Sequence record: MN067430
Reading direction: 5' to 3' (one strand)
DNA from: Escherichia phage vB_EcoP-Ro103C3lw
Length of the DNA: 39,389 bases
Shown here one piece after another: positions 2,470-38,597 of this stretch (position 1 is its first letter; the number at the start of each line of letters is the position of its first letter). The notes beneath the pieces were generated by a model. It searched no databases, was not told where the DNA came from, and was given only the letters and a program-made list of their open reading frames with translations. Made by a program: the position numbers and the translations under genes.

Positions 2470-2492
2470 ATTAAACCCTCACTATAGGACTC
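2470..2492 (+). promoter_or_regulatory. Phage RNAP promoter, immediately upstream of the RNAP gene
   Basis: attaaaccctcactataggac; +1 G at 2487. Confidence 0.75.
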
Positions 2493-2560: not shown

Positions 2561-5227
2561 ATGAGCGTCATTCAGCTTGAGAAGCATGACTTCTCGGACA
2601 TCTCCAACGCTATCGAGCCGTTTAACATTCTGGCTGACCACTACGGGCAGGACCTCGCAGTCAAACAGCTTCAGCTTGAGCATGAGGCATACACTGAAGG
2701 CGAGCGTCGTTTCATCAAGAATCTTGAGCGTCAGGCTGAGCGCGGGGGGCTGGCTGATAATCAGGTCGCAAGACCATTGATGCAAACTCTGGTCCCTAAA
2801 CTGGCGCAAGCCGTCAAGGAGTGGCACGAGACCCAAGGGTCAACCCGTGGGAAACCTCAGGTCGCCTTCCTGAAGCTGAGCACCGAGTCGAAACCTCGTG
2901 CGCTACTGGTCCAACCCGAGTCGGTGGCGGTCATCGTCCTGAAGATTGCGCTCAGTAAGCTGGTCAAGCCTGAAGGCGTACCGATAACGCCGATGGCCTC
3001 CGCGATTGGTCGCACACTGGAGGATGAAATCCGTTTCGGTCGCATCCGTGACCAAGAGCAAGAGCACTTCAAGAAGACCATCGCCGAGAACCTGAAGAAA
3101 CGCGCTGGCGTGGCCTACAAGAAAGCCTACATGCAAGCGGTCGAAGCCTCCATGCTGGACCAGAAGCAACTGGATGATGCGTGGGGGACTTGGAGTCCTG
3201 ACGAGGCGGTCCACGTAGGAATAAAGATGCTGGAGCTGCTGATTCAATCCACACAACTGGTAGAGCTGAAGCGACACAACGCTGGGAACGTAGCGTCAGA
3301 CGTCGAGATGGTCCACCTGTCAGACTTCTGGGCCAAGAAGATGGCTCAGCGAGGCTACAGCCTTGCGGGTATCGCTCCGGTCTACCAGCCGTGCGTCGTG
3401 CCTCCACGCCCTTGGAACTCAGTGGTCGGTGGTGGGTACTGGGCTAAAGGTCGCAGACCTCTCCCGCTGATGCGCTTAGGGTCGAAGGCTGCTATCGCTC
3501 GCTACGAGGAAGTTTACATGCCTGAAGTCTACGAGGCGGTGAACATCATTCAGCAGACACCGTGGAAGGTGAATAAGAAGGTGCTGGACGTAGTGAACAT
3601 GGTCGAGAAGCTGAACAATACGCCTATCGCAGACATCCCGCAGATGGACCCGATGAAGCCTGAGGAGTACGCAGGTGAGACCGAGGAAGAACTTAAAGCG
3701 TGGAAGAAAGCTGCTGCTGGAATCTATCGCCGCGAGAAGGCCCGACAGTCCCGCCGCTTGTCCCTGAGCTTCATCGTCGGACAGGCGAACAAGTTCTCTC
3801 AGTTCAAGGCCATCTGGTTCCCGTACAACATGGATTGGCGCGGTCGAGTCTACGCGGTCCCGATGTTCAACCCGCAAGGCAACGACATGCAGAAGGGTCT
3901 GCTGACTCTGTCAGTCGGCAAGCCAATCGGTGCGGACGGCTTCAAGTGGCTGAAGGTTCACGGTGCAAACTGCGCGGGTGTCGATAAAGTCACCTTCGAG
4001 GAGCGCATCAAGTGGGTCGAAGACAACCACGACAACATCCTCGCGGCTGCTAAGAGTCCGATGGATAGCATCGACTGGTGGGGCAAGTTAGACTCTCCGT
4101 TCTGCTTCCTCGCGTTCTGCTTCGAGTATGCCGGGGTCATGCACCACGGGCTGAGCTACTCCTGCTCACTGCCTATAGCGTTCGATGGGTCCTGCTCTGG
4201 GATTCAACACTTCAGCGCGATGCTCCGTGACCACGTTGGTGGACATGCGGTCAACCTAACGCCAAGCGGGAAGGTCCAAGACATCTACCGCATTGTGTCC
4301 GACCGGGTGGAAGAACAGCTTAAGGAACTACTGGTAAACGGTAGCGACAACGAAGTCAAGACCTTCGAGGACAAGAAGACAGGCGAAATTACTGAACGTC
4401 TGGTCCTTGGAACTCGTGAGCTGGCCCGTCAGTGGCTGACCTACGGGATGTCACGCACGGTCACTAAACGCTCGGTCATGACTCTGGCCTACGGGTCGAA
4501 GGAATACGGGTTCGCAGACCAAGTGTTTGAGGATACCGTGATGCCAGCGATTGACAACGGCAAGGGCGCGATGTTCACGGACCCAAGCCAAGCGTCCCGC
4601 TTCATGGCTAAGATGATTTGGGATGCAGTGAGCGTGACCGTAGTTGCTGCGGTAGACGCGATGAAGTGGCTCCAAGGCGCTGCTAAACTGCTGGCTGCTG
4701 AGGTCAAGGACAAGAAGACCAAAGAGGTCCTGAAGCCTTGCCTCCCGGTTCACTGGGTCACGCCTGATGGCTTCCCGGTCTGGCAGGAGTATCGCAAGAA
4801 GGACACCACACGTCTTGACCTGATGTTCCTCGGGACTTTCCGTCTCCAGCCGACAGTCAACAAGGGGTCGAGCAAGGAGCTGGACAAGCACAAGCAGGAG
4901 TCAGGCATCAGCCCGAACTTTGTACACTCACAAGACGGCAGTCACCTGAGGAAGACTGTGGTCCACACCCACCGCAAGTATGGCGTGATGTCCTTCGCAG
5001 TGATTCACGATAGCTTCGGGACCATCCCGGCTGACGCTGAGTTCCTGTTCAAAGGTGTCCGTGAGACGATGGTCGAGACCTACCGCGACAACGATGTGCT
5101 GCAAGACTTCTACGAGCAGTTCGCGGACCAGCTTCACGAGAGCCAGCGCGACAAGTTGCCTGAGCTTCCAAAGCGCGGTAAACTGAACATCGAAGACATT
5201 CTGTTATCTGACTTTGCATTCGCCTGA
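2561..5227 (+). CDS. gp1: Single-subunit DNA-directed RNA polymerase (T7 gp1 homolog)
   Basis: 888 aa; long conserved blocks versus T7 RNAP, e.g. WFPYNMDWRGRVYAVPMFNPQGNDM, HGANCAGVDKV, PIAFDGSCSGIQHFSAML, KRSVMTLAYGSKE, NFVHSQDGSHLRKTVV, ends SDFAFA. Confidence 0.97.
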   Translation: MSVIQLEKHDFSDISNAIEPFNILADHYGQDLAVKQLQLEHEAYTEGERRFIKNLERQAERGGLADNQVARPLMQTLVPKLAQAVKEWHETQGSTRGKPQVAFLKLSTESKPRALLVQPESVAVIVLKIALSKLVKPEGVPITPMASAIGRTLEDEIRFGRIRDQEQEHFKKTIAENLKKRAGVAYKKAYMQAVEASMLDQKQLDDAWGTWSPDEAVHVGIKMLELLIQSTQLVELKRHNAGNVASDVEMVHLSDFWAKKMAQRGYSLAGIAPVYQPCVVPPRPWNSVVGGGYWAKGRRPLPLMRLGSKAAIARYEEVYMPEVYEAVNIIQQTPWKVNKKVLDVVNMVEKLNNTPIADIPQMDPMKPEEYAGETEEELKAWKKAAAGIYRREKARQSRRLSLSFIVGQANKFSQFKAIWFPYNMDWRGRVYAVPMFNPQGNDMQKGLLTLSVGKPIGADGFKWLKVHGANCAGVDKVTFEERIKWVEDNHDNILAAAKSPMDSIDWWGKLDSPFCFLAFCFEYAGVMHHGLSYSCSLPIAFDGSCSGIQHFSAMLRDHVGGHAVNLTPSGKVQDIYRIVSDRVEEQLKELLVNGSDNEVKTFEDKKTGEITERLVLGTRELARQWLTYGMSRTVTKRSVMTLAYGSKEYGFADQVFEDTVMPAIDNGKGAMFTDPSQASRFMAKMIWDAVSVTVVAAVDAMKWLQGAAKLLAAEVKDKKTKEVLKPCLPVHWVTPDGFPVWQEYRKKDTTRLDLMFLGTFRLQPTVNKGSSKELDKHKQESGISPNFVHSQDGSHLRKTVVHTHRKYGVMSFAVIHDSFGTIPADAEFLFKGVRETMVETYRDNDVLQDFYEQFADQLHESQRDKLPELPKRGKLNIEDILLSDFAFA

Positions 5228-5520: not shown

Positions 5521-5976
5521 ATGTTCAACCGTAAACTGAAAGCACGTATCGCATCTCTTGAAGCAACCGTCCAGCGTCAGGACCGCAACCTTGAGCTGGC
5601 TAACCGGGAGCACTCACGACTGAGGGCCAAGATTCAGAAGGCTGAAGAGAAACGTGAAGTCGACCCATTCCGTGTGAAGCGCATGGTCGGCCTGAAGTTC
5701 AAGGCGCTGTTCAATGGTCTATACCAGCCTACTGAGTTCAAGACCGGACCGGGGCCGTGTGGCAAGACAGTTACGCACTTCACCACGAGTCGGACCGAGC
5801 GTGAGCTGACCATCCACCAGCACCACACGGATGGCTCTCAGAAGGACTTCGAGTATCGACTGAGTGACATCGACGGTCGCATCCAGTACGACTACGAGAC
5901 CGTGCTAGTCTACGGAGAAGAGGCAGAACGGGAGCGAGCACACTACGTCTTCCTGAGACGTCAACGGTTCGCTTAA
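5521..5976 (+). CDS. Hypothetical protein, about 151 aa, with predicted coiled-coil N-terminus
   Basis: Open frame 5452..5976; ATG 5521 chosen as the most likely start (MFNRKLKARIASLEATVQRQDRNLELANREHSRLRAKIQKAEEKR); no homolog recognised. Confidence 0.5.
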   Translation: MFNRKLKARIASLEATVQRQDRNLELANREHSRLRAKIQKAEEKREVDPFRVKRMVGLKFKALFNGLYQPTEFKTGPGPCGKTVTHFTTSRTERELTIHQHHTDGSQKDFEYRLSDIDGRIQYDYETVLVYGEEAERERAHYVFLRRQRFA

Positions 5977-5994
5977 ACCCTCACTATAGGATTA
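5972..5994 (+). promoter_or_regulatory. Phage RNAP promoter (gene 1.1 position)
   Basis: gcttaaaccctcactataggatt; +1 G at 5989. Confidence 0.8.
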
Positions 5995-6062
5995 GACTAA
6001 AGGTCGCTGACTTCCAGTGGCCTTCATGATTAACCCTAAACTCAATCACTGGAGATTTAACC

Positions 6063-7628: not shown

Positions 7629-7651
7629 TTTAAACCCTCACTATAGGACAA
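7629..7651 (+). promoter_or_regulatory. Phage RNAP promoter
   Basis: tttaaaccctcactataggaca; +1 G at 7646. Confidence 0.8.
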
Positions 7652-8564: not shown

Positions 8565-8715
8565 GAAGAAGTACATCGTGGAACTTGAAGGGCGCGTTCA
8601 GTCCTTTGACGTCCCGGTCTACGCTAAGTCTCTGGACGAGGCGACCTTGAAGGCTCAGGAATATGAAGACGCTGGCTTTGTTGTCGGACGCATTCACCCT
8701 GAGCATAAACAATAA
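8545..8715 (+). CDS. gp2: gp2-like inhibitor of host RNA polymerase
   Basis: 56 aa; [14 protein letters not shown] resembles T7 Gp2 (SFEVPIYAETLDEA); not in the ORF track because it is under 60 aa. Confidence 0.75.
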
Positions 8716-8733
8716 ACCCTCACTGTAGGACAA
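8711..8733 (+). promoter_or_regulatory. Phage RNAP promoter, variant (A to G at -4)
   Basis: aataaaccctcactgtaggaca; +1 G at 8728. Confidence 0.7.
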
Positions 8734-8758: not shown

Positions 8759-9457
8759 ATGGCTAAAGAGCAACTGAAAACTTTCACCACTCCGGTCGCT
8801 GGTCTGGTCGAGCCGTATAGCTGGCTGAACAAGGCAGACACCAAGTTCAACGAGCGCGGTGAACACAAAGTCAACCTGACCTTCAGTCTGGATGACCCGA
8901 AAGTCCGCAAGATGATTGACGTCTTGCAGAAGATTCACGACGATGCGTATGCGAAAGCACTCGCAGACCACGAGAAGAACCCACCTCAGGTTCAGCGTGG
9001 CAAGAAGCCCATCGAACCGCGTGAAGGCGATATGCCGTGGATTGAGAATGGTGATGGTACTGTTACCCTGAAGTTCAAATGCTTTGCGTCTTACTTGAAA
9101 GACGGCAAGTCCGAGCCTATCGTATTACGGTTCTACGACACCGATGCTAAACTCATCCGTGACGTCCCGAATATTGGCACCGGGTCTAAGCTGAAAGTCA
9201 AGTTCAAAGTCCTGCCGTTCAAGTGGAACGCTGCGACTGGTGCAAGCGTTAAGCTGCAACTCGAATCCGTGCTGCTGGTCGAACTCAAAGAGTGGTCCGG
9301 TGACGGCACTGGTGGTGATGGTGGCTGGGGTGACGATGAAGACATCGGCTCCGGTGGCTACAAATCGTCTACTGACGGTGACTTCGGGTCTGACGACTTC
9401 GGTGAAGATGCCGATGGTGGCGATGACTCTGCGTCCGGTGGCGACTACGACTTCTAA
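8759..9457 (+). CDS. gp2.5: Single-stranded DNA-binding protein (T7 gp2.5 homolog)
   Basis: 232 aa, same length as T7 gp2.5; MAKEQL...EPYSWLNKAD...RGKKPIEPREGDMPW..NGDGT.TLKFKC.AS...KLQLESVLLVEL and acidic C-terminal tail ending DYDF. Confidence 0.92.
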   Translation: MAKEQLKTFTTPVAGLVEPYSWLNKADTKFNERGEHKVNLTFSLDDPKVRKMIDVLQKIHDDAYAKALADHEKNPPQVQRGKKPIEPREGDMPWIENGDGTVTLKFKCFASYLKDGKSEPIVLRFYDTDAKLIRDVPNIGTGSKLKVKFKVLPFKWNAATGASVKLQLESVLLVELKEWSGDGTGGDGGWGDDEDIGSGGYKSSTDGDFGSDDFGEDADGGDDSASGGDYDF

Positions 9458-9912: not shown

Positions 9913-10133
9913 CCAAAGAAGTTCAGGTAGTCCGCAAGCGTCTGACCATCGACAAGATTCCGGTCGGCTATGCGTTCATCGTCCACGGTAAACCGGGCGA
10001 AGTGTACGTGAAGATTAGTAACTCTCACGTCTTCAACCACAAGTTACTTCAGATGCACACCACGGATTCCAACCGCTTCCAACGTCATCTGAATCTGGTC
10101 GCTGTAGAGCTGGTGGTGTACGATGGTGAGTAA
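9909..10133 (+). CDS. Hypothetical protein, 74 aa
   Basis: ATG overlaps the gp3 stop (ATGA); no homolog recognised. Confidence 0.5.
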   Translation: MTKEVQVVRKRLTIDKIPVGYAFIVHGKPGEVYVKISNSHVFNHKLLQMHTTDSNRFQRHLNLVAVELVVYDGE

Positions 10134-10581
10134 GGTACAGTTCAAACCACGTACAGTCACTGACGCAATCTTCGTCCACTGTAGTGCGACCCAACCGTCT
10201 CAGGACATCGGGGTAGACACTATCCGCATGTGGCACAAGCAGCAGGGCTGGCTGGACGTTGGCTACCACTTCGTCATCAAGCGAGATGGCACCGTGGAGT
10301 CTGGACGCCCGGTCGATGTAGTAGGGTCACACGTTAAGGATTGGAACTCCCGGTCCGTAGGCGTCTGCCTTGTAGGTGGAATCGACGCTAAGGGTAAGTT
10401 TGAAGCTAACTTCACTCCTGCTCAGATGAACGCCCTACGCAACAAGCTGGCTGAACTGAAGGTCCTGTACCCTCAGGCAGACATCAAGGCCCATCACGAT
10501 GTGGCACCAAAGGCTTGCCCAAGTTTTGACTTGCAGCGCTGGCTGAACACTAACGAAATGGTCACTTCCGACCGAGGCTAA
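10123..10581 (+). CDS. gp3.5: N-acetylmuramoyl-L-alanine amidase / lysozyme (T7 gp3.5 homolog)
   Basis: 152 aa; VQFK...DAIFVHCSAT..WH..QGWLDVGYHFVIKRDGTVE...GVCLVGGIDAKGKF.ANFTPAQM...HHDVAPKACPSFDL..W....E.VTSDRG nearly collinear with T7 lysozyme. Confidence 0.95.
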   Translation: MVSKVQFKPRTVTDAIFVHCSATQPSQDIGVDTIRMWHKQQGWLDVGYHFVIKRDGTVESGRPVDVVGSHVKDWNSRSVGVCLVGGIDAKGKFEANFTPAQMNALRNKLAELKVLYPQADIKAHHDVAPKACPSFDLQRWLNTNEMVTSDRG

Positions 10582-10595
10582 CAAGGAGCAATAAC

Positions 10596-10808
10596 ATGAT
10601 TAAGTTTATCGAATTTCTGGGTCGTCTGGTTGTGCGTGGTTATTCTCGTGCTGCGAGTGTGGAACGAAAAGTCGCATCTGCTGCGGCTAAAGGTGCGGAA
10701 GCGGCTGCTGCGGAAGCGGATAGTCTGCGCATCAAGTCTCTGGACGCTGGCCTCCGTGCTCGCGGTCTGGACAAGAAGGCTGAACAACTAAAGGGTTTCT
10801 TCAGCTAA
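10596..10808 (+). CDS. Hypothetical Ala-rich protein, 70 aa
   Basis: SD aaggag before ATG 10596; no homolog recognised. Confidence 0.5.
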   Translation: MIKFIEFLGRLVVRGYSRAASVERKVASAAAKGAEAAAAEADSLRIKSLDAGLRARGLDKKAEQLKGFFS

Positions 10809-10831
10809 CTTAAACACTCACTAAAGGGATG
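10809..10831 (+). promoter_or_regulatory. Phage RNAP promoter, T3-like variant
   Basis: cttaaacactcactaaagggat; +1 G at 10826; has AAAGGGA as in the T3 consensus instead of ATAGGA. Confidence 0.65.
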
Positions 10832-10880
10832 ACCACTTTCGGTTGTCCCTTTTGTCGCATTACTGATTAAGGAGTGACCA

Positions 10881-10976
10881 ATGGAGTTAACTGTATGGCA
10901 TGGACTCGTGGTTGTATCAGGACTCAGTATTCTAACTTTAGGCATTATCGGCTACCTAACTGGTAGGCTCGGATAA
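10881..10976 (+). CDS. Hypothetical small hydrophobic peptide, 31 aa
   Basis: MELTVWHGLVVVSGLSILTLGIIGYLTGRLG; preceded by aaggagtgaccaATG, the same RBS string as the primase gene. Confidence 0.4.
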   Translation: MELTVWHGLVVVSGLSILTLGIIGYLTGRLG

Positions 10977-10983
10977 GGAGTGA

Positions 10984-12690
<1,707 letters not shown>

Positions 12691-12734: not shown

Positions 12735-12899
12735 ATGCTACGAAAACTTAAAGTCCGCTACCACACGTTCATGTACAAGTGGTGGAGCGAGGAGGCCGAC
12801 TGCCTGTCCCAAATCCTTGGAGACCAGCGGTTCAAGTCGAAGGCGTGGAAGCGCGCCAACCAGAAGTTCATGTATCACTTCCTGCGCATTGACTATTAA
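12735..12899 (+). CDS. Hypothetical protein, 54 aa (gene 4.3/4.5 position)
   Basis: SD ggagag before ATG 12735; basic and Trp-rich; not in the ORF track because it is under 60 aa. Confidence 0.4.
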   Translation: MLRKLKVRYHTFMYKWWSEEADCLSQILGDQRFKSKAWKRANQKFMYHFLRIDY

Positions 12900-12917
12900 T
12901 CCCTCACTGTAGGATAG
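12895..12917 (+). promoter_or_regulatory. Phage RNAP promoter, variant
   Basis: ctattaatccctcactgtaggat; +1 G at 12912. Confidence 0.65.
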
Positions 12918-12972
12918 ACTCAAGGCCATTCACATCGAGTGGTCTTTATGATTAGACTATAGGAGATTAACC

Positions 12973-15144
12973 ATGATTGACTTACAGAACATCTGGGGTT
13001 CTGACATCGAGACTAACGGTCTCCTTGACACCGTGTCCCAGTTCCACTGTGGGGTCCTGATTAACGCCGAGTCGAACGAGACCCTGAAGTATGGGGTGGT
13101 GCCGATGGTCGGTATCGTCGGCGGCTTTAAGGAGTATGTGGAGAAGGTCGAGCAGATTGCCGCGACTCCGCATGGACTGCTGGTCTTCCACAACGGTATT
13201 AACTATGACGTTCCAGCGATTGACATCCTGAAGCGTAAATACTTTGGCAAGCGTTTCAACTTCCCGAAACAGAAGATGATAGACACGCTGGTCATGGGAC
13301 GACTGATGTATCCGAACATCAAGTTCTCGGACATGGGCGCTGTGAAAGCTGGCCGTCTGCCACCTAAGATGATGGGACGCCAGTCGCTTGAAGCGTGGGG
13401 CTATCGTCTCGGTGAGATGAAGGGTGAGTACAAGACCGATTACATTGCCAAGTGCAAGGCCGAAGGTATCGACTATAAGGCTGGGGACGAATGGTTGTTC
13501 CCTAGCCAAGAGATGCTGGACTATAACGTCCAAGACGTTGTGGTCACACTGGCCCTGTTCAAGAAGTTCCTGACCGACCAGTTCTACTTTGGGTCTCCTG
13601 AAGCAGGACTTTGGGCTGTGTACGCATTGCGTCTCGAACATGATGCTGCATGGACCTGTGCGAAAATGGAACGCAACGGCTACCCGATGAACTCGGAGAT
13701 AGTCGAAGGCTTGTATCGTGAGCTGTCCATAAAGCGTGCTGAGCTGCTGGATAAACTTCGGTCAACCTTTGGTAGCTGGTATCAGGCCAAGGGCGGTAAG
13801 GAGTTCTTCAAGCATCCTCGGACTGGCGTGGACCTGCCGAAGTATCCACGAGTCGTGTACCCGAAGGTCGGGTCCATCTTCAAGAAGCCGAAGAACAAAG
13901 CTCAACGTCTTGGACTTGAGGAGTGCGAGCGCGACTCCCGCGATACTATGGAAGGCGCACCGTTCACACCTATCGAGTACGTTGAGTTCAATCCGGGGTC
14001 CGGCGACCACTTAGCTAAAGTCTTGATGGACCGTGGGTGGGAACCTACAGAGTTCACTGAGACTGGTAAGCCGAAGTGTGACGACGAGGTGCTGGAGAAC
14101 GTGCATCTGGCAGACCCTGAGGCTCAGGCTTGCGTAGAGCTGGTCCGTGAGTATCTGGTAGTCCAGAAGCGCATCGGTCAGGCGGCTGAAGGTAAGAACG
14201 CATGGTTGAAACTGGTGGGTCCAGACGGAAGGATGCACGGGTCGATTAACCCCTGTGGTGCTGTGACTGGACGTGCGACCCATAGTTCACCGAACATGGC
14301 TCAGGTCCCGGCTAACGGTGCTCCTTGGGGTGAAATCTGCCGTAGCGCCTTTGGTGCTCAGTGGAACAAGAACCACGGGAAGTCCGAGCCGTGGATTCAA
14401 GTTGGGGTGGATGCCTCAGGTCTTGAACTCCGCTGTCTGGGGAACCGAGCGTCTCCGTTTGATGGTGGTGCTTATGCGACCACGGTTGTCGAAGGTGACA
14501 TCCACTGGGCCAATGCGGTCAACGCCGGATTAGCACCTGACGTCAAGCGCGATAAGTCCAACCACGACCATGATGCTTTCCGTAACAACGCCAAGACGTT
14601 TATCTATGCGTTCCTGTATGGTGCAGGGGCCGCTAAGATTGGACTGATAGTCGGCGGTGGGAAGAAGGAAGGTTCAGCCCTGATGAAGAAATTCATTGAG
14701 GGTACACCAGCTATCAAGGACCTTCGAGAGGCTGTGCAGAACACGCTCATCTCCGAGTCCAAGTGGGTAGACGGTGAGAACATCGTGAAGTGGAAACGCC
14801 GATGGCTGAAAGGTCTGGACGGTCGCCGCATTCACATCCGGTCCCCACACTCAGCACTTAACGCCCTGCTTCAGGGTGATGGTGCAGTGGTCTGCAAGCA
14901 CTGGATAGTCGAGACCGAGCGTATGCTTGAAGAAGCTGGCTATGTCCACGGCTGGGAAGGTGACTTTGCGTACATGGCTTGGGTCCACGATGAGCTGCAA
15001 ATTGCGTGTCGTACTCAGGCGATTGCCGAAGAAGTCGTCAAGATTGCTCAACTTGCTATGCGTAAGGTGGGCGAGTTCTATAACTTTAAATGTGTCCTTG
15101 ATACTGAAGGTAAGATTGGACCAACGTGGAAGGAGTGTCACTAA
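12973..15144 (+). CDS. gp5: DNA polymerase, family A (T7 gp5 homolog)
   Basis: 723 aa; SDIETNGLL (exo motif I), VFHNG.NYDVPA, AWGYRLGEMKGEYK, YNVQDVVVT, GAVTGRATH, DASGLELRCL, NAKTFIYAFLYGAGAAKIG, MAWVHDELQ, ends GPTWKECH. Confidence 0.97.
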   Translation: MIDLQNIWGSDIETNGLLDTVSQFHCGVLINAESNETLKYGVVPMVGIVGGFKEYVEKVEQIAATPHGLLVFHNGINYDVPAIDILKRKYFGKRFNFPKQKMIDTLVMGRLMYPNIKFSDMGAVKAGRLPPKMMGRQSLEAWGYRLGEMKGEYKTDYIAKCKAEGIDYKAGDEWLFPSQEMLDYNVQDVVVTLALFKKFLTDQFYFGSPEAGLWAVYALRLEHDAAWTCAKMERNGYPMNSEIVEGLYRELSIKRAELLDKLRSTFGSWYQAKGGKEFFKHPRTGVDLPKYPRVVYPKVGSIFKKPKNKAQRLGLEECERDSRDTMEGAPFTPIEYVEFNPGSGDHLAKVLMDRGWEPTEFTETGKPKCDDEVLENVHLADPEAQACVELVREYLVVQKRIGQAAEGKNAWLKLVGPDGRMHGSINPCGAVTGRATHSSPNMAQVPANGAPWGEICRSAFGAQWNKNHGKSEPWIQVGVDASGLELRCLGNRASPFDGGAYATTVVEGDIHWANAVNAGLAPDVKRDKSNHDHDAFRNNAKTFIYAFLYGAGAAKIGLIVGGGKKEGSALMKKFIEGTPAIKDLREAVQNTLISESKWVDGENIVKWKRRWLKGLDGRRIHIRSPHSALNALLQGDGAVVCKHWIVETERMLEEAGYVHGWEGDFAYMAWVHDELQIACRTQAIAEEVVKIAQLAMRKVGEFYNFKCVLDTEGKIGPTWKECH

Positions 15145-17187: not shown

Positions 17188-17210
17188 AATAAACCCTCAC
17201 TATAGGGATT
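17188..17210 (+). promoter_or_regulatory. Phage RNAP promoter (gene 6.5 position)
   Basis: aataaaccctcactatagggatt; +1 G at 17205. Confidence 0.8.
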
Positions 17211-18446: not shown

Positions 18447-20015
18447 ATGGCTGAACGTGAAGGCTTCGCTGCTGAAGGGGCCAAGGCGGTCTATGACCGA
18501 CTGAAGAACGGTCGCCAGCCGTATGAGACCCGTGCTCAGAACTGTGCAGCCGTGACCATTCCATCGCTATTTCCGAAGGAGTCTGACAACTCGTCTACGG
18601 AATATTCAACCCCGTGGCAGGCTGTGGGTGCTCGCTGTCTGAACAACCTCGCTGCTAAGCTGATGCTGGCCCTGTTCCCGCAAGCCCCTTGGATGAGACT
18701 TACCGTCTCTGAATATGAGGCCAAGACCCTGAGTCAAGACACTGAGGCTGCGGCCCGTGTGGACGAGGGGCTGGCTATGGTCGAGCGTGTGTTGATGGCC
18801 TACATGGAGACCAACAGTTTCCGTGTCCCGCTGTTCGAGGCCCTGAAGCAGCTTATCGTCTCGGGCAACTGTCTGCTGTACATTCCTGAACCTGAGCAGG
18901 GGACCTACAGTCCTATGCGCATGTATCGTCTGGTCTCCTATGTGGTCCAGCGCGATGCGTTCGGTAACGTGCTACAGATTGTCACTCTCGACAAGGTTGC
19001 TTTCAGCGCACTCCCGGAAGACGTCAAGTCCCAGCTTAATGCTGACGACTACGAGCCGGACACTGAGCTGGAAGTCTACACGCACATCTACCGTCAGGAC
19101 GATGAGTATCTGCGGTATGAGGAAGTGGAAGGTGTTGAAGTGACTGGGACCGATGGTTCCTACCCGCTGACTGCCTGTCCATACATCCCGGTGCGAATGG
19201 TTCGACTGGATGGTGAAGACTATGGTCGTTCTTACTGCGAGGAGTATCTGGGAGACCTGAACTCGCTGGAGACGATTACAGAAGCTATCACCAAAATGGC
19301 TAAGGTAGCCTCCAAAGTGGTGGGCCTCGTTAACCCGAACGGTATCACGCAACCTCGACGTCTGAATAAGGCGGCTACAGGTGAGTTCGTGGCTGGTCGC
19401 GTAGAGGACATCAACTTCCTGCAACTGACGAAAGGTCAGGACTTTACGATTGCCAAGTCGGTAGCTGACGCTATCGAGCAACGTTTAGGCTGGGCCTTCC
19501 TGCTTAACTCTGCTGTACAGCGTAATGCTGAGCGAGTGACAGCCGAGGAGATTCGTTATGTGGCAGGCGAACTGGAGGCGACCTTAGGTGGTGTGTACTC
19601 CGTGCAGTCGCAGGAGATGCAGTTACCTCTGGTCCGTGTGCTGATGAACCAACTTCAGTCCGCTGGCATGATTCCTGACCTTCCGAAAGAAGCCGTAGAG
19701 CCTACGGTCTCCACTGGTCTGGAAGCTCTGGGTCGGGGTCAGGATTTGGAGAAGCTGACTCAGGCGGTGAACATGATGACTGGACTTCAGCCTCTGGCTC
19801 AGGACCCGGACATCAACTTGCCGACCCTTAAGCTGCGACTCCTGAACGCTCTGGGTATCGACACCGCTGGTCTCCTACTCACGCAGGACGAGAAGCTGCA
19901 ACGCATGGCTGAGCAGTCGTCTCAACAGGCGGTCGTTCAGGGTGCTGGTGCTGCTGGTGCCAATATGGGTGCTGCTGTGGGCCAAGGAGCTGGCGAGGAT
20001 ATGGCTCAGGCTTAA
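18447..20015 (+). CDS. gp8: Portal (head-tail connector) protein (T7 gp8 homolog)
   Basis: 522 aa; AEGAKAVYDRLKNGRQPYETRAQNCA..TIPSLFPK.SDN.ST.Y.TPWQAVGAR.LNNLA.KLMLALFP, YRLVSYVVQRDAFGNVLQ, RMVRLDGEDYGRSY.EEYLGDL, GLVNPNGITQPRRL. Confidence 0.96.
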   Translation: MAEREGFAAEGAKAVYDRLKNGRQPYETRAQNCAAVTIPSLFPKESDNSSTEYSTPWQAVGARCLNNLAAKLMLALFPQAPWMRLTVSEYEAKTLSQDTEAAARVDEGLAMVERVLMAYMETNSFRVPLFEALKQLIVSGNCLLYIPEPEQGTYSPMRMYRLVSYVVQRDAFGNVLQIVTLDKVAFSALPEDVKSQLNADDYEPDTELEVYTHIYRQDDEYLRYEEVEGVEVTGTDGSYPLTACPYIPVRMVRLDGEDYGRSYCEEYLGDLNSLETITEAITKMAKVASKVVGLVNPNGITQPRRLNKAATGEFVAGRVEDINFLQLTKGQDFTIAKSVADAIEQRLGWAFLLNSAVQRNAERVTAEEIRYVAGELEATLGGVYSVQSQEMQLPLVRVLMNQLQSAGMIPDLPKEAVEPTVSTGLEALGRGQDLEKLTQAVNMMTGLQPLAQDPDINLPTLKLRLLNALGIDTAGLLLTQDEKLQRMAEQSSQQAVVQGAGAAGANMGAAVGQGAGEDMAQA

Positions 20016-20033
20016 ACCCTCACTATAGGAACT
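20011..20033 (+). promoter_or_regulatory. Phage RNAP promoter (gene 9 position)
   Basis: cttaaaccctcactataggaac; +1 G at 20028; overlaps the portal stop codon. Confidence 0.8.
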
Positions 20034-20112: not shown

Positions 20113-20988
20113 ATGTCCCAATCAGTTTATGCCGAGTTCGGCGTTAGCTCTAATGCAATCACTGGTTCCGTCGAGGACCTGAACGAACACCAACAGTCTA
20201 TGCTGGAGAAGGACGTAGCTGTCCGTGATGGCGATGACGCTATTACCTTCAAGCAACTGGAAGCCGAGCGACAGGAAGAGGCGACCGAAGAAGAACTCGA
20301 AGTCGAGACCGATGAGGAAGAAGAGGTTGAAGAAACCGAAGACTCAGAAGGTCAGGACCAAGAGTTCGTTGAGCTGGGTGAAACTCCGAAAGAGCTGACC
20401 GAAAGTGTCACCGCTCTGGACGAGAACGAAGCGGCTTTCGACGACATGGTGTCTGCTGCTGTAGAAGCTGGCAAGGTCACTGCTGATGACATCACCGCTA
20501 TCAAGGCTGAATACGCCTCTAAAGGTGAACTGTCCGAGGCATCCTACGCTAAGCTGGCTGAAGCTGGTTACACCAAGCGTTTCGTCGATTCGTTCGTCCG
20601 TGGTCAGGAAGCTCTGGCTGAGCAGTATGCTGCGGGTGTGGTTCGCTACGCTGGTGGTGCTGAGCAGTTCAACCGCATCCTATCTCACCTTGAGGCCAAC
20701 GATAAGTCAACCAAGGAAGCCCTTGAGTCTGCAATCATCCGTAAGGACCTTGCGACCGCTAAGGCCATCCTGAATCTGGCTGGTCGTAACCTCGGTAAGA
20801 CTCGCGGTGTTGCACCTCAGCGTACTCTGACTACTCAGGGTAAACCAGCAGTCGCTGCACCGAAGGTCCAGACCGAAGGCTTCAGCTCCAAGTCTGACAT
20901 GATTAAGGCCATGAGCGACCCGCGCTATCTTCGTGATGCTGCTTACACCAACTCTGTCCGCACGAAGGTTGCTGCTTCCAGCTTCTAA
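20113..20988 (+). CDS. gp9: Capsid assembly (scaffolding) protein (T7 gp9 homolog)
   Basis: 291 aa, highly acidic with Glu-rich tract; sits between portal and capsid genes. Confidence 0.85.
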   Translation: MSQSVYAEFGVSSNAITGSVEDLNEHQQSMLEKDVAVRDGDDAITFKQLEAERQEEATEEELEVETDEEEEVEETEDSEGQDQEFVELGETPKELTESVTALDENEAAFDDMVSAAVEAGKVTADDITAIKAEYASKGELSEASYAKLAEAGYTKRFVDSFVRGQEALAEQYAAGVVRYAGGAEQFNRILSHLEANDKSTKEALESAIIRKDLATAKAILNLAGRNLGKTRGVAPQRTLTTQGKPAVAAPKVQTEGFSSKSDMIKAMSDPRYLRDAAYTNSVRTKVAASSF

Positions 20989-21009
20989 TATACCCTCACT
21001 ATAGGGAGA
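20987..21009 (+). promoter_or_regulatory. Phage RNAP promoter (strong phi10-type, before the capsid gene)
   Basis: taatataccctcactatagggagacc; +1 G at 21004; followed by a gggagacc...ggtttccc 5' stem-loop as in the T7 gene 10 leader. Confidence 0.85.
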
Positions 21010-21114
21010 CCAAGAGTTACGACTCAAGGTTTCCCTGTAACTTCAGTCCATACGGATTGGGCACAACGAAGTCACTAAACTTTATTTCTTTCATTCGAAT
21101 AGGAGAATTATCAT

Positions 21115-22164
21115 ATGGCAAACGTTCCGGGTCAGAAAATTGGTGCAGACCAAGGTAAGGGTAAATCTAGTGCAGACCAGCTCGCACTGTTCCTTAAGGT
21201 CTTCGCTGGTGAAGTCCTGACAGCTTTCACCCGTCGTTCTGTTACCGCTGACAAGCATATTGTCCGCACCATTCAGAACGGTAAGTCCGCACAGTTCCCG
21301 GTAATGGGTCGCACCTCCGGTGTGTATCTTGCTCCCGGTGAGCGCCTGAGCGATAAGCGCAAGGGTATTAAACACACTGAGAAGGTTATCACCATTGACG
21401 GTCTGCTGACCGCTGACGTGATGATTTTCGACATCGAAGACGCTATGAACCACTACGACGTGGCTGGCGAGTATTCCAACCAGCTCGGTGAGTCTCTGGC
21501 TATCGCCGCTGATGGCGCGGTACTGGCTGAGATGGCGATTCTGTGTAACCTCCCGGCTGCATCCGACGAGAACATCGCTGGTCTGGGCAAGGCGTCCGTG
21601 CTGGAAGTTGGTACTAAAGCAGACCTGAACACTCCAGCCAAGCTGGGTGAGGCGATTATCGGTCAACTGACCATCGCACGTGCTAAGCTGACTAACAACT
21701 ACGTGCCTGCTGGCGACCGCTACTTCTACACCACACCTGACAACTACTCCGCGATTCTGGCGGCTCTGATGCCTAACGCTGCTAACTACGCTGCGCTGAT
21801 TGACCCTGAGACGGGCAACATACGTAACGTAATGGGCTTCGTTGTGGTTGAAGTTCCTCACCTGACTCAGGGTGGTGCTGGCGAAACCCGTGGTGACGAT
21901 GGTATTTCCATTGCTTCCGGTCAGAAACACGCATTCCCGGCGACCTCCAGCTCTACCGTTAAGGTTGCTCTGGACAACGTTGTGGGCCTGTTCTCTCACC
22001 GTTCTGCTGTTGGTACTGTTAAGCTGCGTGACTTGGCGCTGGAACGTGACCGCGACGTCGATGCTCAGGGCGACCTGATTGTCGGTAAGTACGCTATGGG
22101 TCACGGTGGTCTGCGTCCAGAAGCGGCAGGCGCACTGGTTTTCACAGCGGCGTCAGCGGGTTAA
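21115..22164 (+). CDS. gp10A: Major capsid protein (T7 gp10A homolog)
   Basis: 349 aa; LALFLKVF.GEVLTAF.R.SVT...H.VR.I..GKSAQFPV.GRT...YLAPGE.L.DKRK.IKHTEKVITIDGLLTADV.I.DIEDAMNHYDV..EY..QLGESLA.AADGAVLAE, YAMGHGGLRPEAAGA. Confidence 0.97.
   Translation: MANVPGQKIGADQGKGKSSADQLALFLKVFAGEVLTAFTRRSVTADKHIVRTIQNGKSAQFPVMGRTSGVYLAPGERLSDKRKGIKHTEKVITIDGLLTADVMIFDIEDAMNHYDVAGEYSNQLGESLAIAADGAVLAEMAILCNLPAASDENIAGLGKASVLEVGTKADLNTPAKLGEAIIGQLTIARAKLTNNYVPAGDRYFYTTPDNYSAILAALMPNAANYAALIDPETGNIRNVMGFVVVEVPHLTQGGAGETRGDDGISIASGQKHAFPATSSSTVKVALDNVVGLFSHRSAVGTVKLRDLALERDRDVDAQGDLIVGKYAMGHGGLRPEAAGALVFTAASAG
22137..22143 (+). other. Candidate -1 programmed ribosomal frameshift slippery site (GGTTTTC)
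   Basis: G GUU UUC lies 6 codons before the gp10A stop, in the same relative position as the T7 gene 10 shift site; the -1 frame is open from here to 22427. Confidence 0.6.
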
Positions 22165-25456: not shown

Positions 25457-25479
25457 ATTACACCCTCACTATAGGGACT
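25457..25479 (+). promoter_or_regulatory. Phage RNAP promoter (gene 13 position)
   Basis: tattacaccctcactatagggact; +1 G at 25474. Confidence 0.8.
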
Positions 25480-32200: not shown

Positions 32201-33176
32201 GACGAACTACCTGTTAGACGCCGGACGTCAAGGCTTCTTGTCTGACATCGTGGAACATAGTCTGACTGGCAGTAAGCGTAAGTTCGATGACCGTTGGTTG
32301 AAGACTGCCGGTATCTCCGCTGACCAGTGGAAGGGCATTAAGTCCCTAATCCGTGAGTCGGTGACTCGTGGTCCAGATGGGAAGTACACCATCAAGGACA
32401 AGAAAGCGTTTAGTCAGGACCCAAGGGCGATGGACCTCTGGCGTATGGGTGACACCATCGCTGATGAGACCCTGCTCCGTCCGCACAAGCTGAGCAACAT
32501 GGACGCCAAGGCTTACGGTCCTCTCGCTAAGACTGTCTTGCAGTTTAAGAACTTCGTTATCAAGTCTATCAACGGTCGAACCATGCGTACCTTCTACAAT
32601 GCCACCAAGAACAACCGAGCTATGGATGCTGCATTGTCAACGGTTATGTCTATGGGTCTGGCTGGGATGTACTACATGGCTCAGGCGCACATCAAGGCAT
32701 ACGCTATGCAGGACGGTCGTGACCGTGAGTACCTCAAGCAGGCCCTGAACCCGACGATGATTGGCTATGCGGCTCTGTCCCGTAGCTCTCACCTCGGTGG
32801 TCCTCTTGGGGTCGCCAACATTCTGGGTGGCATCGCTGGGTATGAGGACACTAAGTTGCTCCGTTCGTCTATCCTTCCGCGCTCACCTACCGAGAAGCCT
32901 GAACGTGCCATTTCCTATGGTGCTGCTAAGAGCGACCCGGTTATGAACGTGGTAGGCAACTTCCTTGAGCAGGTCCCAGCTTTCGGCTACGCTGCTAACG
33001 TTGGCGCTTCGGCTTACAACTTGGCTGGCTACCTCAAGTCTGATACCCGTGTGAACGAGCGGGACTACATGACCGGGATGTATAACACCTTCCGCGAGCT
33101 GGTCCCGAACGACCCAATCACTCAGAAGCTCCTGCTGGGAACCTTTGAGGAACAGGGGATTCACATCAAGGATTAA
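29280..33176 (+). CDS. gp16: Internal virion protein D (T7 gp16 homolog)
   Basis: 1298 aa; from about residue 190 onward collinear with T7 gp16 (RSTWFGFGGAAEAE, PTRWNNHKWSREELDQIR, AGVIGAGVDPL, RLEARETARN, DLVRSPTGMQSGASGK, GTYVPHVY, SRPEVKARVDE, AYGISH, NGDIAIM, FFAKNAYMG, NGTTNYLLDA, DPRAMDLWR, LRPHK, ALSRSS); N-terminal ~150 aa not recognisably similar. Confidence 0.93.
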   Translation: MATRGVRNANPGNIRKSKDQWEGAVGDDGAFVIFDSPESGVRALAKNLQSYGRQGYDSIEKIITRWAPPSENDTQSYINSVVAATGIPATQSIDLSNPDVLASLSEAIGYHETGSRYDPEVYKTGVSRALSGAGGITPKTPPVSANVFDALTEGLKSKPKVALGENLPGVTGMNIEGQAPEAPNESFGEMFYKSTGETLDQRADRSTWFGFGGAAEAEVKNSMVGVAIRAGQTEDSLDVIGDVFNPTRWNNHKWSREELDQIRNAGVLPQYYGVITGGSPQNLTELINLALENQKLDAEKAKAGSGAQLAAGVIGAGVDPLTYVPIAGQVGKGGKLVNKMFTVAAQSGALAGASELARTSVAGGDAHVAEAIMGGALFAGGMTAIGDAIGKALGKSTNEFAGPATRLEARETARNVDGQDLSRLPIREGEETFSHQGVKFADVPNEPGSVRLEDGSILIGENPLNPKTRQVFDEVIEPERAAAGVNLGGLTEIGLKLLRSENPEIRGLAADLVRSPTGMQSGASGKIGTTASDVFERLRAVDHRFYNDIDDAVTQALRDPYFQTNFNRDTGAFRQDIYQRVALAIEDGSGNLKAELTPGELKVYDLLKNQFDAKREMMENPAMFGRVDAQSIFPGSRFKGTYVPHVYSNQMKQLFINELGSPEALQEAIKKSWLTSYASRPEVKARVDEALLEANPNLKPEELAAAVDKYANDKAYGISHTDLFERSSVMEENINGLVGLENNNFLEARNLFDSDMSIILPNGQPFNVNSLREWDMDKIVPAYNRRVNGDIAIMAGTGKTTKEMKDTVETMMNRAGDDGKLKGEVATLRDTLKILTGRARRDGADDAAFSTVMRTMTDLSFFAKNAYMGVQNLTEIGGMLARGNVRAMLHGIPMFRDLAFRNKKMGASEIKDLHNVVFGKELDDSIRPSKQDVIDRLRAYSDLSKPVATALGSVKYYTGELAVRSPFTKVLNGTTNYLLDAGRQGFLSDIVEHSLTGSKRKFDDRWLKTAGISADQWKGIKSLIRESVTRGPDGKYTIKDKKAFSQDPRAMDLWRMGDTIADETLLRPHKLSNMDAKAYGPLAKTVLQFKNFVIKSINGRTMRTFYNATKNNRAMDAALSTVMSMGLAGMYYMAQAHIKAYAMQDGRDREYLKQALNPTMIGYAALSRSSHLGGPLGVANILGGIAGYEDTKLLRSSILPRSPTEKPERAISYGAAKSDPVMNVVGNFLEQVPAFGYAANVGASAYNLAGYLKSDTRVNERDYMTGMYNTFRELVPNDPITQKLLLGTFEEQGIHIKD

Positions 33177-33194
33177 ACCCTCACTATAGGAAAC
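33172..33194 (+). promoter_or_regulatory. Phage RNAP promoter (gene 17 position)
   Basis: gattaaaccctcactataggaaac; +1 G at 33189; leader contains the hairpin gggacgctaccacaggtccc. Confidence 0.8.
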
Positions 33195-38574: not shown

Positions 38575-38597
38575 CTTATACCCTCACTATAGGAAAG
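38575..38597 (+). promoter_or_regulatory. Phage RNAP promoter near the right end (phiOR position)
   Basis: cttataccctcactataggaaag; +1 G at 38592. Confidence 0.75.

Follow-up and report, generated by a model that had tools for sequence, protein, structure and literature searches.

The window, by which is meant the whole stretch of DNA analysed here (39,389 bp, 52.8% G+C), holds the complete genome of a T7-like phage in the Kayfunavirus group, with the full T7 gene order, and its nearest public phages are IMM-002, Pisces, Cronobacter GW1 and Shigella SFP21B (Kayfunavirus-like), at 91-94% nucleotide identity, none of the records being near-identical. The site under study, at 10809-10831, reads CTTAAACACTCACTAAAGGGATG followed by accactttcggttgtcccttttgtcgcatt and lies at the location of the phi3.8/R3.8 module, with the amidase/lysozyme gene upstream and the gp4 primase-helicase gene downstream (Table 1). 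Gene order around this slot is identical in the T7 and T3 records, in which the orthologs at this place are annotated as promoters, and the site does precede a small hydrophobic ORF and the primase gene, as the first-pass annotation of this DNA had described. The gp3.5 gene is present in the window; the T7 gp3.5-type protein inhibits the phage polymerase according to the annotation of the T7 record.

Table 1. Coordinates of the promoters, RNA hairpins and genes discussed in the text.
Feature	Position	Strand	Basis or remark
Consensus-core promoter	2470-2492	+	Weight scan; 74 nt 5' of RNA polymerase gene
Single-subunit RNA polymerase gene, 888 aa	2561-5227	+	Pfam RNA_pol, RPOL_N; specificity loop encoded at about 4778-4900
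Consensus-core promoter	5972-5994	+	Weight scan; RNase III-like hairpin next at 6000-6024
Consensus-core promoter	7629-7651	+	Weight scan
phi2.5-type promoter, -3G	8711-8733	+	Reads AATAAACCCTCACTGTAGGACAA; 5' of SSB gene
T7-type SSB gene	8759-9457		Pfam
gp3.5-type amidase (lysozyme) gene	10123-10581	+	Pfam Amidase_2
phi3.8-type promoter (-17 to +6), -10A, -2A, GGGA start	10809-10831	+	+1 predicted at 10826; T7/T3 phi3.8 orthology
R3.8-like hairpin	10823-10852	+	5' arm AAAGGGATGACC (-3 to +9), loop ACTTTC, 3' arm GGTTGTCCCTTT, then TGT
31-aa hydrophobic ORF, MELTVWHGLVVVSGLSILTLGIIGYLTGRLG	10881-10976	+	Insertion with duplicated ribosome-binding site AAGGAGTGACCAATG
gp4 primase-helicase gene	10987-12690	+	Pfam
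Promoter with -3G, -12T	12895-12917	+	Reads ATTAATCCCTCACTGTAGGATAG; 5' of DNA polymerase gene
Hairpin of R4.7/R1.1 RNase III-site type, AAGGCCATTCACATCGAGTGGTCTT	12922-12946	+	Resembles sequences after T7 phi1.1A/phi1.3 and T3 R1.1/R1.3
Family A DNA polymerase gene	12973-15144		Pfam
phi6.5-type promoter, GGG start	17188-17210	+	Weight scan
phi9-type promoter	20011-20033	+	Weight scan
phi10-type promoter, GGGAGA start	20987-21009	+	Weight scan; 5' of capsid gene; transcript opens with hairpin 21004-21035
Major capsid protein gene	21115-22164		Pfam
phi13-type promoter, GGG start	25457-25479	+	Weight scan
phi17-type promoter	33172-33194	+	Weight scan
phiOR-type promoter, near right end	38575-38597	+	Weight scan

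A position-weight scan of the whole window returns exactly 12 sites of the promoter family, all on the + strand, while the rest of the genome scores at most 8 bits; the predicted transcription starts are 2487, 5989, 7646, 8728, 10826, 12912, 17205, 20028, 21004, 25474, 33189 and 38592. With up to three mismatches allowed, the 15-mer has 12 matches against 0.97 expected from shuffles, none of which reached 12 (0/100). These are repeated intergenic sites on the coding strand of a genome that encodes a cognate single-subunit polymerase, as is characteristic of a T7-group promoter family. The consensus is ATTAAACCCTCACTATAGGA, with ACCCT at -12 to -8 and a T7-like T at -2. ACCCT is present in ten of the 12 copies, the others being the 12895-12917 copy (TCCCT) and the 10809-10831 copy (ACACT). 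The late-region copies have no departures inside -12 to +2 and three of them differ at -13 only; the base at this position is T, C and T in the copies starting at 21004, 25474 and 38592 respectively. The first-pass annotation quoted three sequences from this family, all of which are present where it placed them and correct to the letter; its count of nine sharing copies out of twelve applies to the 14-mer ACCCTCACTATAGG, the 15-mer AACCCTCACTATAGG being present in six.

One member of the family is a full-consensus promoter (+1 at 2487) that is followed by an R1-like hairpin and precedes the RNA polymerase gene by 74 nt, which implies positive feedback on polymerase expression. In T7 and T3 the equivalent slot holds host promoters and the R1 site only, whereas the window has a phage promoter there. 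This promoter is kept in relatives, and the copies in L003, L007 and L022 have -2A (CACTAAAGGACTC). A scan of the window for a relic promoter of the K1F type re-found the known sites only.

The window polymerase is 64% identical to the T3 enzyme and to the T7 enzyme. Residues 748, 756 and 758 (T7 numbering) read promoter positions -11/-10, -9 and -8 respectively, and N748D by itself shifts the T7 polymerase towards T3 promoters. The specificity loop of the window enzyme, RLDLMFLGTFRLQPT, which can be compared with RLDMIFLGQFRLQPT in T3 and RLNLMFLGQFRLQPT in T7, has Asp at the T7-748 position, Arg at 756 and Gln at 758; in the loop alignment the residue in question, Asp753 (encoded at 4817-4819), aligns with N748 of T7 and D749 of T3. 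The promoters agree with this, positions -12 to -8 being ACCCT in the window and in T3 and CGACT in T7. The family as a whole is thus T3-type where specificity is read, so that the 10809-10831 copy is not "the T3-like one", as it had been labelled in the first-pass annotation. This copy lacks ACCCT and is, at -10, the least T3-consensus member of the family.

What the copy does have in common with the T3 consensus is its initiation region (CACTAAAGGGATG here, CACTAAAGGGAGA in T3), which includes -2A, the other 11 copies having T at -2; position -2 is no specificity determinant. Its departures from the family consensus inside -13 to +3 are -10 C>A, -2 T>A and +3 A>G, and it is the lowest-scoring member of the family, at 28.6 bits compared with 32.8-38.7 for the others. 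It nevertheless retains the T7-group promoter core, namely CTC at -9 to -7, -5C, TAAA and GGG, positions that are kept in more than 98% of active T7 promoter variants.

Comparison with the orthologs places these departures in context. The phi3.8 promoter of T3 is AATTAACACTCACTAAAGGGAGA, then cttaacgtttccctttgtt, and has with the window copy an identical 17-mer, AACACTCACTAAAGGGA, that spans -13 to +4; the phi3.8 promoter of T7 is TAATTGAACTCACTAAAGGGAGA, then ccacagcggtttccctttgtt / ccacagcggtttccctttgttcgcatt, and has ACTCACTAAAGGGA in common with the window copy. Within the window family -10A is found at phi3.8 alone, and the same is true within the T3 family. The exact 17-mer occurs in ten IMG/VR contigs, nine of which carry it in the phi3.8 position, followed by the hairpin and the start of gene 4; the tenth (L089, 902 bases) has neither a downstream hairpin nor other promoters in view. 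Eight of the nine have ACCCTCACT at their other promoters, comprising T3-like phages and T3-type Kayfunaviruses, and the ninth, L022, is a K1F-type mosaic.

The predicted transcription start at this site coincides with the start of an RNA hairpin that the first-pass annotation overlooked. RNA from +1 folds as GGGAUGACC-ACUUUC-GGUUGUCCC, and read-through RNA adds pairing of AAA (-3 to -1) with UUU, so that the stem is 12 bp in read-through RNA while transcripts starting at 10826 hold only the inner 9-bp stem, in a 5'-terminal position. The fold is stable (-18 kcal/mol, z = -4.1), none of 200 shuffles being equally so, and has the features of the phi3.8/R3.8 module hairpin: GGGA...UCCC at +1, a U-rich tract after it and a base that reaches into -3 to -1. 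In the T3 record the homologous stem-loop, at 10616-10642, bears the annotation RNase III site R3.8 and shares the bases from -4 onwards with the promoter, and in T7 the phi3.8 start lies just 5' of the R3.8 cut, with RNA coverage falling 3' of the cut (Jack et al. 2019); the identification as R3.8 rests on these two sources, the T7 GenBank records listing no RNase III features. A stem of 12 bp is short for an RNase III substrate. The hairpin escaped the terminator scan, since its T-run forms part of the stem, and Rfam gave no family matches anywhere in the window. The 3' GTC was considered as a primase recognition site and dropped, since it is not conserved in T7.

Among the window promoters, only phi3.8 and phi10 have transcripts that open with a hairpin at +1, as in T7. 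The phi10-type leader (21004-21035) starts with the 5'-terminal hairpin GGGAGACC-AA-GAGU-UACG-ACUC-AA-GGUUUCCC, which has a UACG tetraloop (-17.7 kcal/mol, z = -4.1) and corresponds to the T7 phi10 leader stem in extended form. Two further hairpins, of the T7 R1.1/R1.3/R4.7 type, are found directly 3' of the 5989 start (AAGGTCGCTGACTTCCAGTGGCCTT, at 6000-6024) and of the 12912 start (Table 1), so that modules of promoter and RNase III site recur in the genome.

Among 80 related loci collected around gene 4, the promoter and hairpin are seen in every clade where a phi3.8-like site was locatable. The MAFFT alignment of this region was out of structural register and the stem arms alone were therefore registered by hand, which makes the covariation test less independent; in this alignment of 18 distinct sequences, with many rows phylogenetically related, 85.6% of cells are paired and six of the 12 pairs have changes on both sides. 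The covariation score is matched by none of 500 shuffles, and sliding the partner by a single column lowers the pairing to 47-63%. The pair formed by position -2 is A:U in T7, T3, the window clade and two further lineages, C:G in the K11-like clade of about 40 loci (CACTACAGGGAGA...CCCTGTT) and U:G in three other, more distant lineages, and the -1 pair shows one swap from A:U to U:A. In K1F-type relatives there are U.U mismatches at -2 and -3, so the extension of the stem into -3 to -1 is not universal.

The first-pass annotation drew attention to the AAAGGGA start region of this copy, and the bases are real; they are best explained by the hairpin, because this conserved structure starts at +1 and reaches into -3 to -1. 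From these comparisons we conclude that -2A and the GGGA start appear to be kept largely by RNA structure and ancestry, and not by T3 admixture.

The three variant copies, at 8711-8733, 10809-10831 and 12895-12917, all sit in the DNA-metabolism (class II, middle) block, 5' of the SSB, primase-helicase and DNA polymerase genes respectively, and all depart from the late consensus, which places them in class II. [quoted passage not shown] In T7, -2A occurs in five of ten class II promoters and in no class III promoter. The -11C, the CTC at -9 to -7 and the -5C are intact in all three copies.

Which of the departures would lower activity can be gauged from T7 promoter variants, an argument that carries T7 polymerase data over to a different enzyme. 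The wild type gives RNA/DNA ratios of 142-188 over five barcodes (mean 169), and -2 T>A is near neutral in vitro, with ratios of 161 and 138 (about 80-95% of wild type). For other changes the Komura table gives ratios of about 80 for -2 T>C, 83 and 53 for -3 A>C, 38 and 31 for -10 A>T and about 3.5 for -10 A>G, and promoters with -3G plus upstream changes, which are combined variants, give 15.6 and 2.5 against the wild-type 169; across these values, changes at -3 and -10 leave 2-50% activity. For an Asp748-type enzyme, the accessible literature yielded no value for -10 C>A. Since -2 T>A is almost neutral for T7 in vitro, -2A alone makes no weak promoter, and the bases likely to lower activity are -10A at phi3.8 and -3G at the other two copies.

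The departures at these other two copies are themselves conserved. Relatives of both specificity types described below have -3G in the promoter 5' of the DNA polymerase gene, with -3T in L018, and the orthologs of the SSB promoter in relatives have -3G or -3T. We propose that both -3G copies are middle promoters, conserved and tuned down, that serve the SSB and DNA polymerase genes. The earlier suggestion that the variants are deliberately weaker or differently timed promoters thus holds in outline, given their place in the class II block, the conservation of the departures at orthologs and the known T7 pattern, with the amendment that -2A is probably not the weakening base. In the close relative L004 the SSB promoter (+1 at -2151 from gene 4) reads AACCCCCACTGTAGG, which combines -3G with C at the critical position -8, and is for these reasons probably inactive there.

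Taken together, these observations make it likely that 10809-10831 is the ortholog of the phi3.8 class II (middle) promoter, fused to an R3.8-type RNA hairpin and acting as a weak middle promoter; promoter activity, strength and RNase III cutting in this phage are what we infer from the sequence. The phage polymerase, with its T3-type residues, would still bind the site, because the critical -11C, -9 to -7 CTC and -5C are kept, and would bind it more weakly on account of -10A, in the base pair read by residue 748, hence a weak middle promoter. Transcripts from 10826 would open with the 9-bp 5'-terminal hairpin, which is probably stabilising and resembles the phi10 leader in this respect, and read-through transcripts from upstream promoters would form the longer 12-bp stem. 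Host RNase III would probably cut the latter at the 3' base, or this stem would serve as a 3' stability or partial-termination element; it would set the gene 4 message apart from the middle mRNAs transcribed upstream. The best reading combines a weak middle promoter with a hairpin for RNA processing, an ordinary element of a known kind and no sign of recent exchange with T3.

The alternatives have to be weighed against the background of the genus, in which two polymerase/promoter types are found. The window, L004, L005 (the GW1 contig) and L018 combine ACCCTCACT promoters with Asp748/Arg756, and most relatives, including L003, L006-L017, L019-L022, L032 and L076, combine K1F-type ACTATCACT promoters with Asn748/Asn756. 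The polymerase backbones of both types are 88-92% identical to the window polymerase, and the types also differ by indels in the AT-rich recognition loop and at -16 (T vs C). L022 (IMGVR_UViG_3300045988_000160) has an N748/N756 polymerase and eight K1F-type promoters, yet carries a window-type phi3.8 (AACACTCACTAAAGGGATG, +1 at locus position 9946), and its identity to the window is 96-97% at 10501-11500 compared with about 85% elsewhere. This is a recombination footprint that has left a probably non-cognate promoter, and the presence of a window-type phi3.8 in this phage indicates that a non-cognate promoter is tolerated at the slot. T3 offers a comparable case, an unused T7-type promoter 5' of gene 17. 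On the genome comparison, this is one genus with two polymerase/promoter specificity types that exchange DNA.

Because L022 has a K1F-type polymerase, promoter activity at the slot may be dispensable, and the site could then be a relic that is dead as a promoter, with the hairpin alone being selected, for RNA processing, stability or partial termination, and gene 4 being expressed by read-through. L022 keeps the sequence even though it mismatches the K1F type at -10 and -9, the K1F-type relatives have at this position CACCTTAGGG, a core with about 2% activity in the T7 context, and the hairpin is the most universally conserved part of the element. Selection on the hairpin alone does not account, however, for the stretch from -13 to -4 (AACACTCACT), which lies outside the hairpin and does not vary between T3-like and Kayfunavirus genomes, although overall these share only about 69% identity; moreover, the positions most critical for activity (-11, -9 to -7 and -5) are intact and the T7 and T3 orthologs are annotated as promoters. 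We therefore regard a dead promoter as unlikely.

Neutral drift without regulatory meaning is a decidedly improbable account of the departures from consensus. It would fit the near neutrality of -2 T>A for the T7 polymerase and the alternation of T and A at -2 in other promoters of relatives, such as the copies 5' of gene 1 in L003, L007 and L022 mentioned above, but individual orthologs show the same departures across genera (phi3.8 has -10A and -2A, and the SSB and polymerase promoters have a base other than A at -3), covariation links the -2 base to the base it pairs with, and all variant copies lie in the middle-gene block, with none among the late promoters.

Recent recombination with a T3-like phage that imported a T3 promoter, as the first-pass annotation had entertained, is very improbable, for while the 17-mer is identical to that of T3 phi3.8 and mosaic exchange around the site does occur within the genus (L022), the similarity to T3 is a 75-nt island of 77% identity (10813-10885) with gp3.5 and gp4 flanks (68.2% and 68.7% identical) at the genome mean of 69.5%, the details of the hairpin loop and stem are unlike T3 and partly T7-like, every T3-type Kayfunavirus relative examined has this sequence, and a T3-like genome more than 90% identical over several hundred bases near 10.8 kb was not found. 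No such import is needed, since T3-type specificity is already a property of the polymerase and of the entire promoter family. The stretch shared with T3 is, on these identities, conservation of a short functional element and not a recent import.

Returning to the phi3.8 ortholog with its R3.8-type hairpin, the observations can be combined, tentatively, into a single picture. The site would be dual-coded, with -3 to -1 set by R3.8 pairing (A:U, C:G or U:G at -2) and not by polymerase preference, and -10A would be a conserved intermediate base at this one promoter in all Asp748-type phages of two genera. Through recombining types and non-cognate copies such as that of L022, the slot may possibly record the switching of specificity while the phage stays viable.

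For annotation, it follows that the proper label for the odd copy is phi3.8 with an R3.8-like hairpin and that the family is best described as having T3-type specificity and a T7-like base at -2, with no T3 recombination to be read from it. More generally, the non-consensus bases of a middle promoter can be conserved across genera, and in at least one case, at -2, the base changes together with its pairing partner in the RNA, which makes the site a small, clear example of a promoter that overlaps an RNA structural element. Two specificity types exchanging DNA in one genus should be useful for the study of polymerase-promoter co-evolution and for the mining of orthogonal pairs. Phi3.8/R3.8 and the heterogeneity of class II promoters were known already, and the covarying base at -2 and the coexistence of two specificity types that undergo mosaic exchange add modestly to them; tuned middle promoters are plausible, but the evidence lends no support to T3 admixture.

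Across relatives, the interval from the phi3.8 hairpin to gene 4 (10854-10986 in the window) is an insertion hotspot. In the window, EFA-1 and TH16 it holds a membrane-like ORF of 31 aa with a duplicated ribosome-binding site; the homolog in EFA-1 and TH16, also of 31 aa, is identical at 21 of 31 positions, and the ORF is missing from most relatives. Other occupants of the slot are the HNH endonuclease gene 3.8 in T7, an ORF of about 350 bp in L010, a predicted tRNA-Thr(CGT) in L011 (9908-9986) and a different small ORF in L020 and L032.

Among the named systems, the phi3.8/R3.8 element of T3 (NC_003298, 10603-10642) has the same slot 5' of the primase-helicase gene, the same sequence from -13 to +4, a -10A that departs from its own ACCCT consensus, and a hairpin that starts at +1 with a base using -4 to -1 in T3, together with a polymerase that has Asp at the 748-equivalent position. 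The two differ in that the T3 consensus has -2A, so that T3 phi3.8 departs from it by -10A only while the window copy departs at -2 too; in the stem, which is GGGATGACC/GGTTGTCCC with a 6-nt loop in the window and GGGAGAC/GTTTCCC in T3; and in the ORF that is inserted between hairpin and gene 4 in the window, in addition to the divergence of the two polymerases noted above.

The T7 phi3.8 promoter, a class II promoter, resembles the window copy in having -2A and a GGGA start against a TATAGGGAGA consensus and in its departures within the -13 to -10 binding region. The T7 R3.8 leader hairpin is near-identical to that of the window (GGGAGACCACAGCGGTTTCCCTTTGTT), and a similar 5' hairpin is found on the phi10 leader in both phages. 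In contrast to the window, T7 has a polymerase with N748 that reads CGACT and an HNH endonuclease gene in the slot after the hairpin, and -2A is present at half of its class II promoters and at one promoter of the window genome.

The closest relatives by genome and polymerase backbone are the K1F-type Kayfunaviruses (AACTATCACTATAGG promoters), which have the 12-promoter layout, a -3G promoter 5' of the DNA polymerase gene and a hairpin after the lysozyme gene in common with the window. They differ from it in having N748/N756 and ACTAT at -12 to -8 where the window has ACCCT, in an AT-rich recognition loop with indels relative to the window, and in a phi3.8 site that reads AACTATCACCTTAGGGATG, with mismatches in the stem extension at -2 and -3.
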